DNA of 44,396 nucleotides from a virus (taxonomy: Duplodnaviria > Heunggongvirae > Uroviricota > Caudoviricetes), in the IMG/VR virus record IMGVR_UViG_3300028422_000701; one strand, written 5' to 3'. The notes under the pieces were generated by a model. That model did no database searches and was not told the origin of the DNA. It worked only from the letters and a program-made list of their open reading frames with translations. Positions 29,693 to 33,824 of the stretch are shown in pieces. Every line of letters starts with the position of its first letter. The first letter of the stretch is position 1. A program made the translations under genes and the position numbers.

Positions 29693-29784
29693 ATTAATAG
29701 TTAAACAGAAAGGGTGTTACCAACACCCACCATAGTAACTGTTTAACAGTAAAAAAATAAAAAAGTAAAGGTAGGTAAAAAAAA

Positions 29785-30219
29785 ATGGTAAAAACAGTTA
29801 AAGGTACTAAAATTAGTACAAAAAAGGTTGGTAATAAACCAACAGTTAATAAGGTGGTTAGTAACCCAGTAGTTACATTAACACCTGTTACAACAGTAAC
29901 AACAGTTACACCAAATGTAACAGTAACACCACAAACGGTAGGGGTAAAGGTAGTAAATGTTAAACCACAAATTGTATATGTAAAAAGGTTATTACATAAT
30001 TACTTAAAACAAAACGGGTTAAACCATACAAACAGTACAACAACAAAACCACAAGTAATAAGTAATATAACACCACAACAAGTACAACAAGTACAAACAC
30101 AACTTAATACATACTTACAAGGTATTAATACAATTTATAACTATACTACTACACCACAAACATTATACATACAAAACCACTTTATAACACACAGTAATAA
30201 ATATTTAGGGTTAAAATAA
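29785..30219 (+). CDS. basic protein lacking Asp/Glu/Ala; paralogue of 30879-31262
   Basis: shares VKPQI.YVKR...NYL, STTTKP, Y.YTT..Q..YI.NH..TH..KY; AGGTAGGT RBS. Confidence 0.85.
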   Translation: MVKTVKGTKISTKKVGNKPTVNKVVSNPVVTLTPVTTVTTVTPNVTVTPQTVGVKVVNVKPQIVYVKRLLHNYLKQNGLNHTNSTTTKPQVISNITPQQVQQVQTQLNTYLQGINTIYNYTTTPQTLYIQNHFITHSNKYLGLK

Positions 30220-30303
30220 CCCTACTTGTTACATAGGGTATAACCAAAAAAGGTTGTACCCCTTGTAATGGGTAATACCATTATAAAAAGGTAGGTGTAA
30301 AAC

Positions 30304-30453
30304 ATGGGTACTAAAAAGTACGGGGTTAAAACATGGGTTAAAACAACCGTTATTGTACTAGTTATGGGGGTAATTAGTGGGTGGTTATGTGTAGGGTTAG
30401 ACAACTTATACCAAAACCGTATAAACCAAATACAACAACAAAATAACAACTAG
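30304..30453 (+). CDS. 49-aa membrane peptide
   Basis: AGGTAGGT RBS; MGTKKYGVKTWVKTTVIVLVMGVISGWLCVGLDNLYQNRINQIQQQNNN. Confidence 0.6.
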   Translation: MGTKKYGVKTWVKTTVIVLVMGVISGWLCVGLDNLYQNRINQIQQQNNN

Positions 30454-30470
30454 TAAAGGGTAGGTAAACA

Positions 30471-30542
30471 ATGTTAAAACTAAGTAAAATAATTAAGTGG
30501 GGATTTACTCCACCAAAAAGAAAAAGAAGAAAAGGAAGATGA
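30471..30542 (+). CDS. 23-aa basic peptide crossing the edge of the GA-free zone
   Basis: GGGTAGGT RBS; MLKLSKIIKWGFTPPKRKRRKGR. Confidence 0.35.
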   Translation: MLKLSKIIKWGFTPPKRKRRKGR

Positions 30543-30635
30543 AAGTCTTCATTTTTTTCATCTTTTGTATCAAAAAGGAAGTCCTTCGTCCCAAATGACA
30601 AGTGACGTTTTCAATATCGACGTTGACAGGTCTGG

Positions 30636-30677
30636 GTTTCCAGTTTCAGGTGTGCGGTTTCAGGTTTCCAGTTTCAG
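30636..30677. repeat. 7-bp-period array of GTTTC(C/A)(A/G)
   Basis: units at 30636, 30643, 30657, 30664, 30671; degenerate unit at 30650. Confidence 0.8.
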
Positions 30678-30786
30678 GCTTGATAACAATATTCAAAATG
30701 GATAAAATTCACTTTTTATTTGCAGTTTCAGTTGTAAGTTCAAATCAGAAAATATTATTAAATTGTTGAAAAGTTACAAAAAAGTG

Positions 30787-30815
30787 TTTACTTTCCGATT
30801 ATTCTGTAGTATAAT
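30787..30815 (+). promoter_or_regulatory. promoter of the normally coded paralogue
   Basis: TTTACT-17-TATAAT. Confidence 0.6.
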
Positions 30816-30878
30816 ATAAGTAGTTAAACAAAAAAGGGTTTAACAAATCTTTGAAAATATGGAAAGGTAGGAAAGAAT

Positions 30879-31262
30879 ATGGAAAAAGATGTTAAAGTAG
30901 TACCAGTGAAAGTGAAAGAGGTTATTAGTGGTGAAACTAAAGAAACTAAGGTAGTTAAGACACCAAAGGAGAAAGTAGTTACTAACGTATTGACAGTTAA
31001 GGTTAATGATGTTAAACCACAAATCATGTATGTAAAACGTATCATTAATAATTACTTAGTAAAGGCAGGTATCAATAGTACTACAAGTACTAGTACAAAA
31101 CCTGAAAGTATTAAGTTAAGTGAAGCACAATTAAAAGAAACTAATAAGTTATTAGGTGAATGTAAAAACCTAATTAAAAGTAAATACGATTACACTACTG
31201 ATGAACAAATGGCTTATATCACTAACCACTTACAAACACATTTCACTAAGTACATAAAATAA
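30879..31262 (+). CDS. hypothetical protein; normally coded paralogue of 29785-30219
   Basis: shared motifs as above; AGGTAGGA RBS; own terminator. Confidence 0.85.
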   Translation: MEKDVKVVPVKVKEVISGETKETKVVKTPKEKVVTNVLTVKVNDVKPQIMYVKRIINNYLVKAGINSTTSTSTKPESIKLSEAQLKETNKLLGECKNLIKSKYDYTTDEQMAYITNHLQTHFTKYIK

Positions 31263-31283
31263 GGTCAACTAGACCTTTTTTTA
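31261..31283 (+). terminator. intrinsic terminator
   Basis: AAGGTC/GACCTT stem plus T run. Confidence 0.7.
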
Positions 31284-31343
31284 TTACCCTGTTATATCAA
31301 TTCTGAATTGACCTGTGGGCGGGGGAGAAAAAGAAAAGGTGTA

Positions 31344-31556
31344 CTAAACACCTATATAGTCAATTGTTATTACTTCACGTTCATTAGTACTAGTATTTAC
31401 TAACTTAACAGTATCATGGTTTCTTACTTTCACTGTCCAACCCCATACTAATAACTTACTAATATAACTATCAATATAGTCATTCATATAACTTACTGTG
31501 GTAAACATACCAATCACCTTTACACCATTTTCACTACTACTTGTTACTTTAAACAT
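31344..31556 (-). CDS. hypothetical protein
   Basis: ATG 31556 with GGTAGGT RBS; promoter TTGTAT-17-TATAAT at 31619-31591. Confidence 0.65.
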   Translation of the reverse strand: MFKVTSSSENGVKVIGMFTTVSYMNDYIDSYISKLLVWGWTVKVRNHDTVKLVNTSTNEREVITIDYIGV

Positions 31557-31647
31557 ACATAACACCTACCCTTTCCTATGTTACAATATAATTATAACAT
31601 ATTAAGTTATGAAATACAATACCCTAATAACAACTTTTCATAACTTA

Positions 31648-31932
31648 TTAAACTTTTCTTATTTTGGTTATTATGGTGTAGTTAATATCACTTAAGCATT
31701 CGTCTTTACTGTCATGCCATACTATACTAGTTTTCTTTTTAGTTTGGTGAACCTTTTTTAACTTATATATAATTCGTACTTTTATATACAATACACACCC
31801 ACTTAAATCAAGTAATTTTACCGTGTTTTTAGCCTCCTGTAACGTTGAAAACACTTTACTAGTACTAATACACCCAAAGGTATTATCGTCCTGTAAATAC
31901 CCACCATTGGTACGTTGTCTTATTATGTACAT
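31648..31932 (-). CDS. hypothetical protein
   Basis: AGGAG RBS; promoter TTGACT-17-TATAAT at 31984-31956. Confidence 0.65.
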   Translation of the reverse strand: MYIIRQRTNGGYLQDDNTFGCISTSKVFSTLQEAKNTVKLLDLSGCVLYIKVRIIYKLKKVHQTKKKTSIVWHDSKDECLSDINYTIITKIRKV

Positions 31933-32521
31933 ACTATCATCTCCTTACTGATACTATTATAACACACTTACTTTCATAAGTCAAGTATAAAATGTGAGTA
32001 CTTTACTCCTATGAAAGTTATATAATTGACACATTTTGACCTTTTTACCCCCTAAAAACAGTCAAAAACGAGTGTATTTTGCAGTTTCAAGTACGATTTT
32101 GTCACCTAAAATGTCAAAAAAGAAGTGAAATGAGTCTCAAATTAGCAGTTTCAAGTCCGAAATGATGGCTATTTATTAAGATCTGATGTGCAATTTCACC
32201 TCTGAAATGAGGTTTCAAATCAGACATGAAGACGCCGAGCCCTTGATTTATAAGGGATTTCTTTTCTGAAGAGACGAACGGTAAGGGAAAGTTTTGTTTG
32301 TTTGAAAGGGTTCACCCATAAGTGGTAGTCGTATTGTATGTTACTATATAGTTAACTTGTTATGTTTGTCTTATTTATATACTTATTTGATAATTTCTTC
32401 TTATTTTCTCTTTCTATTTCCCCGCGCCCCGTAGTTGTGACAAGTTGTATAATTTCACACATTATTATTGTATGTACTGCGTTTTCATGGTATTATATAA
32501 ATATAAGGGAGGTATAGTACA

Positions 32522-32668
32522 ATGATTAAATATCAAGTATACTATTGGGTTGAAATTGATAATGGGGTTTATGAAAGTGTAGTTGTTAACGAATTTGATG
32601 ACTATGAACAGGCAAGTAACTACATAGAAGATAGACCTGAATGTAGTATAAGAAGGGAGTGGGTATAG
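32522..32668 (+). CDS. 48-aa acidic protein
   Basis: hand-translated; GGGAGG RBS; promoter TTGTAT-17-TATTAT at 32468-32496. Confidence 0.6.
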   Translation: MIKYQVYYWVEIDNGVYESVVVNEFDDYEQASNYIEDRPECSIRREWV

Positions 32669-32865
32669 TGGAACATATAATTGATAAAGTTATTCTTGCA
32701 CAGTATGAAGAGTATTGTGAACTTAATGGTTTAAAACCAAGTGAAGAAGACAGTGTTAACCAATACATGACAGAACTATTTTACCAAATAGAAACTGAGA
32801 AAGACCTAAACAATTTAAACAATATGGAAAGTACAATAAGAGAGTATTACAACTTATGTGGGTAG
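32659..32865 (+). CDS. hypothetical protein
   Basis: ORF track. Confidence 0.55.
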   Translation: MGIVEHIIDKVILAQYEEYCELNGLKPSEEDSVNQYMTELFYQIETEKDLNNLNNMESTIREYYNLCG

Positions 32866-33002
32866 TTGATTGTATTAACAGTAATGGTACACCATTTGAA
32901 AGTAAGTTTTATAATTTACCTAGTTTGAATAATTTCTTACGTAAATGTAAACACGGTAAGAATGTAAGAATTATAGGTAGACCTAGATATGTTGACTTTT
33001 AG
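32856..33002 (+). CDS. 48-aa hypothetical protein
   Basis: hand-translated MWVVDCINSNGTPF...; ends in a terminator hairpin. Confidence 0.45.
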   Translation: MWVVDCINSNGTPFESKFYNLPSLNNFLRKCKHGKNVRIIGRPRYVDF

Positions 33003-33070
33003 TCAACTTTTTATTTTCCCCGCCTACGGTTCAAAGTCGACAATGATATACACAGTTAAAAAGAAAAGGG

Positions 33071-33412
33071 TTAGAAACTATAATCATAATATTTGTCTCT
33101 TACCCCAACCCTTACTACTGTTTCAGTACCACGTATTTTCCATAAACCATTTTTTCTTTTAGATACTGTATAAATTATACCATCATGATCTCTTTCAAAT
33201 TCATACTCTTGTACTTCACTCATACCATTGTCATCAACCCTTGTTGCTTTATCTCTTTGTATCTTTATTGTCTTTCCACTTTTATTAATTTCAATTATTG
33301 TTGCAGGTTCCCTATCACTCCAGTACATAAGGGTTGCACCATCACCTACTTTTATGTCTTGTTTGTTACACCCTTCTTCAAGTCTGTTTGTTATACTTCC
33401 ATATAGTCTCAT
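33071..33412 (-). CDS. conserved phage hypothetical protein
   Basis: VGDGATLMYWSDREPATII...GVRDKYYDYSF pattern; GGAGGAG RBS. Confidence 0.7.
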   Translation of the reverse strand: MRLYGSITNRLEEGCNKQDIKVGDGATLMYWSDREPATIIEINKSGKTIKIQRDKATRVDDNGMSEVQEYEFERDHDGIIYTVSKRKNGLWKIRGTETVVRVGVRDKYYDYSF

Positions 33413-33414
33413 AT

Positions 33415-33606
33415 CTATTTCTCCTCCTTCAATATTATATGATTACCAACCTTATCAACTACAACATAACGTATACTATTTAATGTGATATACACATTTC
33501 TATTACTTACTGTTGTAATATCCATGAAGTTACTTGCATATAGTTTTTCGTTTTGTAAAACTACATATTGTCCTTTTTCGTCTTCTTTAATTTCTAAATC
33601 TACCAT
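33415..33606 (-). CDS. hypothetical protein
   Basis: AGGAGAGG RBS; promoter at 33663-33635. Confidence 0.65.
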   Translation of the reverse strand: MVDLEIKEDEKGQYVVLQNEKLYASNFMDITTVSNRNVYITLNSIRYVVVDKVGNHIILKEEK

Positions 33607-33824
33607 AAGTCACCTCTCCTTTACTTATATTAATATTATACCACTTTTGGTGGTGAATTACTACACTTTTTGTTGAAATATGGTGATAAATTATTAAATT
33701 ATTGTGTCAAAGTCGACCTTGATTAATTAACCTTTTTAATGAAAAATTAGGTTATTTTAGTTGTAAATTACCACCATTCTTGGTATACTATTAGTAGTTA
33801 ATTAAAAAAGGTAGGTGTTAAGGT

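Follow-up and report, generated by a model that had tools for sequence, protein, structure and literature searches.

A Shine-Dalgarno (SD) sequence spelled GGTAGG precedes six genes clustered in the early region of a tailed phage, where it is probably this lineage's spelling of an SD free of the dinucleotide GA. The cluster would then stem mainly from avoidance of GA and GC, combined with the copying of cassettes that carry a promoter and a ribosome-binding site (RBS). The DNA analysed here (44,396 nucleotides (nt), the window) covers bases 64001-108396 of the 108-kb virus record IMGVR_UViG_3300028422_000701, the ends of which overlap by 144 nt. The phage has a low GC content and Firmicute-type signals, and its genes are named below by their start positions in the window (Table 1). 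An earlier note on this DNA had proposed that GGTAGG is a private address tag, through which one small RNA (sRNA), encoded at 42474-42605, silences a regulon without affecting canonical phage or host RBSs. Judging from the sequence comparisons below, such a tag is not needed to account for the variant, its clustering or its spill-over beyond the GA-free zone, and it is partly contradicted.

A clustered variant of the Shine-Dalgarno sequence

In GGTAGG, a single bulged T interrupts an otherwise canonical SD, and the halves on either side of it pair with the 16S rRNA end. The bulged form is predicted to pair with the anti-SD at -9.6 kcal/mol, compared with -13.4 kcal/mol for the canonical form. 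All six sites were located as the earlier note had described them, 6-9 nt ahead of 29785, 30304, 30471, 30879 and 33825 and 8 nt ahead of 31556, which lies on the minus strand. Tested against a canonical 16S 3' end, they are predicted SDs with energies of -9.5 to -14.5 kcal/mol.

The genome-wide tabulation of RBS motifs suggested in that note was made on mechanical gene calls for the whole record (160 genes). GGAGG was found in the SD zone of 70 genes, GGAG or GAGG in 41 and GGTAGG in seven. Six of these seven belong to the stretch of 11 genes from 29785 to 33825 (p = 1.5e-7 by Fisher's test and 3e-5 by circular permutation), while the seventh precedes a 545-amino-acid (aa) gene elsewhere in the genome. 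Clustering is also seen when two short open reading frames (ORFs) outside the window are counted in (p = 2e-4), and for the three sites outside the GA-free zone alone (p = 0.002). The cluster is real, and the clustered gene set that had been claimed is not a random scatter. Within the same span, canonical SDs precede five genes (31932, 32522, 32668, 33412 and 33606).

The variant is not private to this phage. It serves as SD in 7 of 411 Bacilli chromosomal genes (1.7%), used as stand-ins for the host, as well as in 6 of 200 genes of phage G002 (3%) and 2 of 125 of phage Flasso (1.6%), besides the 545-aa gene here. These foreign sites are dispersed over large ordinary genes. A usage of about 2% in Bacilli also speaks against the idea that the tag spares host RBSs.

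Avoidance of GA and the spelling of the site

The sites of 29785, 30304 and 30471 lie within a zone (29462-30502) that is free of GA, TC and GC apart from two GA exceptions. Canonical AGGAGG is therefore unusable there. Placing a T between GG and AGG would remove the GA and leave both halves pairing around a one-base bulge. The earlier note had described the variant itself as GA-free, which applies to five sites; the sixth, that of 30879, reads AGGTAGGA and has GA on either side. Its observation that the variant also occurs outside the zone was confirmed for 30879, 31556 and 33825.

Relatives were located through a full profile search with the 29785/30879 family, followed by look-ups of contigs. 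Word-based homologue searches with 29785 and 30879 returned nothing, capsid and terminase scans of viral contigs yielded no close genome, and a search for the promoter-leader pattern gave no matches. L036 and L128/L129 are syntenic with this phage, with values of 60-61% for the terminase and 53-56% for the portal. Relatives retain GA-free copies of the gene inside GA-free zones of up to 1.5 kb, and their SDs are spelled GGTGG and GGGGG (L036), GGGG and GGTGG (L037, L046), GGGGG (L041, L047, the L041 site having the same left flank as 29785) or GTAGGTG (L130). Even near strains differ at the same place, with GTAGGTG in L130 and GGTGG in L131, and GGTAGG is found in none of 106 genes of relatives.

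Across these 106 genes, a GA-free SD goes with a low content of GA, TC and GC in the gene body (Mann-Whitney p = 2e-7, the genes of one phage not being independent). Such an SD precedes 10 of the 11 genes at or below 3%, 4 of the 9 at 3-8% and at most 9 of the 86 above 8%; the eleventh gene of the lowest class also carries one, displaced by a start-offset error in the call. Among the lineages compared, the constant is the absence of GA, and the letters of the SD are lineage-specific.

GA-free SDs also stand before GA-containing gene bodies in relatives (L046 11361 and 12043; L047 1216, 1848 and 2558; L037 6271; L042 1628). The earlier note had read the out-of-zone sites as a sign of the tag. 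The same spill-over is seen in relatives, where the SDs are spelled in different GA-free letters and no hairpin antisense to them was detected in fragments of up to ~27 kb.

In this phage, the three out-of-zone genes resemble copied cassettes on which selection against GA acted in the past or acts more weakly. Gene 30879 is a paralogue of 29785, and 31556 is poor in GA compared with its paralogue 36100, which has a canonical SD. Together, 31556, 33825 and 30879 rank 6, 11 and 17 of 159 from the low end for GA/TC/GC (post hoc p = 7e-4), and RBS stretches of 14-20 nt are common to paired cassettes both here and in relatives, the paired cassettes of relatives with such spill-over having 19-20 nt in common. 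Cassettes of promoter and RBS appear to have been duplicated and homogenised in this region, which would account for the same SD on these partly GA-depleted neighbours.

A candidate small RNA with one probable main target

The candidate sRNA is a gene-free unit with a predicted promoter and terminator of its own; its C-rich loop is predicted to be unpaired and is complementary to the RBS of 29785. It has no match in Rfam at gathering scores. The 16-nt Watson-Crick match between loop and 29785 site, reported in the earlier note, was recovered and exceeds in length every other antisense to an RBS in this genome, assembly overlap aside; other RBSs have chance antisense matches of 14-15 nt. The core of 6-10 nt that all copies were said to share holds approximately, with Watson-Crick pairing of 7-10 nt at the other five sites (Table 1).

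The five best loop duplexes in the genome all involve GGTAGG genes (-23.7, -18.9, -18.2, -17.6 and -17.6 kcal/mol), compared with -16.1 kcal/mol for the best canonical site, while 30879 (-13.8 kcal/mol) does no better than canonical sites. Net of opening costs, 29785 reaches -23.6 kcal/mol and the other five GGTAGG sites -13.6 to -16.2 kcal/mol. The canonical sites of 34530 (-14.5 kcal/mol) and 33606 (-13.4 kcal/mol) also bind well because they share the left flank. As a group, the six sites pair better than canonical RBSs into which a T was inserted (p = 0.015) and better than 18 foreign GGTAGG sites (p = 0.002). Comparing tagged with untagged sites, the gain in sRNA binding is clear for 29785, marginal for four sites and nil for 30879. 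What stands of the proposed regulon is that GGTAGG sites pair better than canonical ones on average; clean discrimination is seen for 29785 only. These predictions point to one clear target, 29785, which the sRNA probably silences strongly, and to four plausible secondary ones. Shared ancestry with 29785 would explain the excess pairing at the secondary sites as well as selection would.

No homologue of the sRNA was found in viral contigs or in the relatives, which are represented by fragments. Six matches of a 17-nt loop word came from unrelated phages with neither hairpin nor GA-free zone and were judged to be chance, and an antisense of 13-15 nt in L047 lies within a divergent promoter rather than in a hairpin unit. 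Separately, the reverse complement of the loop (42530-42550) agrees at 17 of 18 nt, with one base missing, with the stretch of RBS and spacer ahead of the L036 orthologue (L036:9983-10000). This match is better on the 3' side than that to 29785, and may reflect an older form of the RBS or chance in AT-rich DNA.

Competing explanations

In the favoured account, the ban on GA would keep the first-expressed genes clear of the phage's own DpdA-dependent deazaguanine modification, and an unmodified zone would let the host polymerase read the incoming DNA. The gene set for DpdA and preQ0 (dpdA with folE, queD, queE and queC) is encoded outside the window in the same genome; DpdA has 44% identity to that of Bacillus phage Flasso, and the match of the QueE-like protein lies below the Pfam cut-off. 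Genome-wide, GA and GC are under-represented (0.73 and 0.77, respectively). The sRNA would be an inverted copy of the 29785 RBS, blocking translation of 29785 once DNA 13 kb further on is transcribed. Because of common ancestry it would also pair with the sister sites, and may thereby damp 33825, 31556, 30304 and 30471 as a side-effect. What stands out at this locus are two separate findings, the GA-free zone and the candidate sRNA; the SD cluster would largely follow from them.

Several observations weigh against this account. The link of the GA ban to DpdA, which we infer, is its weakest step because four other DpdA carriers (Flasso, Dp-1, G001 and G002) have no GA-free zone. In addition, dpdA was not seen in the fragmentary contigs of relatives, and the dpdA frame of this phage has no clean start. 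Avoidance of GA does not predict these particular letters, and a run of G would pair better with the anti-SD (-12.5 kcal/mol) than the bulged form does (-9.6 kcal/mol). For 31556, the closest promoter is that of 34530, a gene with a canonical SD, rather than the one at 29664, and the T in the SD of 31556 may for that reason have arisen independently. Finally, even without 29785, the remaining five sites pair better with the loop than T-inserted canonical RBSs (p = 0.047) and the 18 foreign GGTAGG sites (p = 0.006), a result that selection by the sRNA would also give.

A narrower form of the address tag is unlikely but carries some weight. Here, the GA ban would have forced a non-canonical SD, and a late-entering sRNA would have exploited the spelling and would now maintain it on four or five early genes, inside the zone and beyond it, for their joint shut-off, largely sparing canonical phage and host RBSs. 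The ranking of the loop duplexes fits this possibility, as do the predicted promoter, terminator and open loop of the sRNA and the continuation of pairing beyond the core at 33825 and 31556, where it enters the spacer (16 and 14 nt with G:U pairs). Moreover, five of the six sites reach -17.6 kcal/mol or lower, a level attained by none of the 18 foreign GGTAGG sites (best -17.4 kcal/mol) and none of the 411 Bacilli genes. However, the same numbers result if the sites are descended from the cassette copied by the sRNA, and the secondary sites overlap canonical ones once opening costs are included. Further, 30879, which is paralogous to the main target, does not exceed canonical sites, the spacer TGTTA also follows canonical SDs here (35247, 24868), and relatives have one-spelling clusters without the hairpin in their fragments.

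It is improbable that RNA regulation is absent altogether, with the 42474 unit an unexpressed or neutral inverted remnant of a duplication behind 42704 and the SD cluster purely compositional. The unit does adjoin 42704, the third paralogue, and neither its lack of homologues nor the chance antisense matches at other RBSs would be surprising under this explanation. Yet its match exceeds all of these in length and is fully unpaired in the loop, and the unit has a good promoter on one side and a terminator on the other.

A special ribosome, or initiation that is deliberately weakened or shifted in time for the genes expressed first, is very improbable: the bulged site does lie ~4 kcal/mol below the canonical one, but stronger G-run forms are found at the orthologous gene in relatives, AAGG and AGGT, together with GGGT, are scored as SD motifs in the Firmicute Staphylococcus aureus (PMC13009471), and a special host anti-SD was rejected because most phage genes (~110 of 160) use canonical sites of the GGAG/GAGG type.

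Under the favoured account of GA avoidance and cassette copying, a dinucleotide that is avoided in the early region of a phage is kept out of the RBS as well. Each lineage would settle on its own GA-free spelling of the SD, a signature by which such cassettes could be traced, together with neighbours that have decayed. If the sRNA were to silence several genes through the spelling, it would form a natural orthogonal sRNA-RBS pair and provide a new means of setting when early genes are shut off; only one main target is supported by the evidence.

Features of the region

The coordinates of the zone, the cassettes and the sRNA unit are collected in Table 1. No match in Pfam, PHROGs or PDB was found for the 29785 product, including by a fold search of its family, and PHROGs returned nothing beyond E = 0.04 for the six cluster genes tested. 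ORF 30471 runs out of the GA-free zone at mid-length and is possibly a relic.

Table 1. Features of the GGTAGG cluster and the candidate sRNA unit (window coordinates; pairing with the sRNA loop in nt, Watson-Crick (WC) and with G:U pairs allowed)
Feature	Position	Strand	Remarks
GA/TC/GC-free zone	29462-30502		GA exceptions at 29708 and 30400; GA/TC gaps 248, 692 and 102 nt; GC gap 1192 nt
Promoter of 29785, sigma-A-like	29664-29692	+	ACCA-N4-TGGT palindrome; consensus match only
RBS of 29785	29761-29776	+	GGTAGG at 29770; unstructured; pairing 16 WC, 16 with G:U
Gene 29785	29785-30219	+	144 aa without Ala, Asp or Glu; three-helix family; GA-free and ordinary copies in relatives
RBS of 30304	30287-30298	+	GGTAGG at 30290; pairing 10 WC, 12 with G:U
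Gene 30304	30304-30453	+	Membrane-type ORF, 49 aa, within the GA-free zone
RBS of 30471	30456-30466	+	GGTAGG at 30459; pairing 8 WC, 11 with G:U
ORF 30471	30471-30542	+	23 codons; gene status doubtful
Promoter of 30879	30787-30815	+	Predicted
RBS of 30879	30863-30871	+	AGGTAGGA, GGTAGG at 30866; weakest sRNA match; pairing 9 WC, 9 with G:U; -13.8 kcal/mol
Gene 30879	30879-31262	+	127 aa; 43% identity to 29785 over 100 aa; GA/TC/GC rank 17/159
Terminator of 30879	31261-31277	+	Predicted
Gene 31556	31344-31556	-	70 aa; weak paralogue of 36100; GA/TC/GC rank 6/159 (36100: 106)
RBS of 31556	31560-31573	-	GGTAGG at 31570-31565; pairing 7 WC, 14 with G:U
Promoter of 33825	33761-33789	+	Predicted; ACCA-N4-TGGT palindrome; cassette closest to the 29664 promoter (39/53 nt)
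RBS of 33825	33807-33822	+	GGTAGG at 33810; pairing 10 WC, 16 with G:U
Gene 33825	33825-33983	+	Membrane-type ORF, 52 aa, TTG start; GA/TC/GC rank 11/159
Promoter of candidate sRNA	42439-42467	+	Predicted; sigma-A-like, extended -10; no ACCA-N4-TGGT palindrome
Candidate sRNA	42474-42605	+	Hairpin, its 19-nt open loop (42536-42554) antisense to the RBS of 29785, followed by terminator (42573-42597)
Gene 42704	42704-43000	+	Immediately follows the sRNA; canonical SD; diverged, the third paralogue in the 29785 family

Several further observations concern the early cassettes. The leaders of 29785 and 30879 open with related 5' hairpins (29699-29748 and 30822-30844), and the GA exception at 29708 sits within the former. 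The palindrome ACCA-N4-TGGT occurs in or beside many early promoters (29555, 29673, 33640, 33773, 34456, 34988, 40183, 43069 and 43532), with 9 of its 11 genome copies within 29.5-43.6 kb. It is likely a repressor operator, and a protein with two helix-turn-helix motifs (41480-42148) is a candidate binder. Early cassettes are parted by non-coding spacers rich in GA and TC (30540-30780, 32030-32330 and 34380-34420) with short word repeats resembling CAGTTTCA, and comparable spacers flank the GA-free zones of L034, L037, L042 and L046.

Immediately before the zone, T- and A-tracts with short repeats (29150-29330) mark a candidate packaging site or genome end. A long terminal repeat, suggested by two mate-pair contigs of high depth (29331-29689 and 31978-32275), was dropped; both have the linker on the same side and are perhaps amplified duplicates.

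Some relatives have arrays of three to four 29785-family paralogues in promoter-terminator cassettes of their own, with a gradient of GA depletion (L046:10001-14421, L047:273-4592). Three GA-free orthologues have an apparent ATT start 7-9 nt behind a GA-free SD (L034:1287, L037:4612 and L130:514). In L037, a 12-nt anti-SD lies in a leader hairpin (2507-2518), 130 nt upstream of the GA-free gene 2644, as a possible cis switch.

Comparison with known systems

The modification genes resemble those of phages with 7-deazaguanine DNA, such as CAjan and iggy, in that dpdA, queC, queD, a queE-like gene and folE are present and GA is among the avoided steps (PMC7544227, PMC10484667). DpdA targets GA and GGC in CAjan and GA in iggy, with the G of GA being modified (PMC10484667), whereas here every GC is avoided, not GGC alone, and modification is predicted from the genes. 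Neither target-free early genes nor recoded SDs are mentioned in this literature (PMC7544227, PMC10484667), and a search of the literature for early regions left unmodified in hypermodified phage DNA found no paper. The closest DpdA proteins are those of Bacillus phage Flasso and Streptococcus phage Dp-1, both without a GA-free zone.

The loss of a short DNA motif from an early region has a parallel elsewhere. In the first-step-transfer region of T5, target sites are avoided in the phage DNA that enters first. In this phage, the dinucleotide ban extends to codons and the SD, and first entry of the zone is conjecture. The SD itself shares its letters and spacing with the bulged or mismatched SDs of Firmicutes (AAGG-N-AGGT type), as found in Bacilli chromosomes, G002 and Flasso. 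Those sites are scattered, whereas here they are clustered on early cassettes and track the depletion of GA and GC.

The sar RNA of P22 and the OOP RNA of lambda are encoded in cis opposite their own targets, whereas the unit described here lies 13 kb from its target and would pair over 16 nt only. Both block translation of a phage gene (sar on ant, OOP on cII; review PMC12197685), and the likeness lies in a phage RNA that silences one early phage gene by pairing, at translation initiation in the case of sar and by prediction here. The C-rich loops of S. aureus RsaE and Bacillus subtilis RoxS pair with SD sequences (PMC6158497). Like them, the candidate is trans-encoded, sets an unpaired pyrimidine-rich loop against G-rich RBSs and has several possible targets. 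Unlike them, it is phage-encoded, lies outside known Rfam families and matches one phage gene perfectly over 16 nt, and its loop reads a bulged SD rather than GGAGG.

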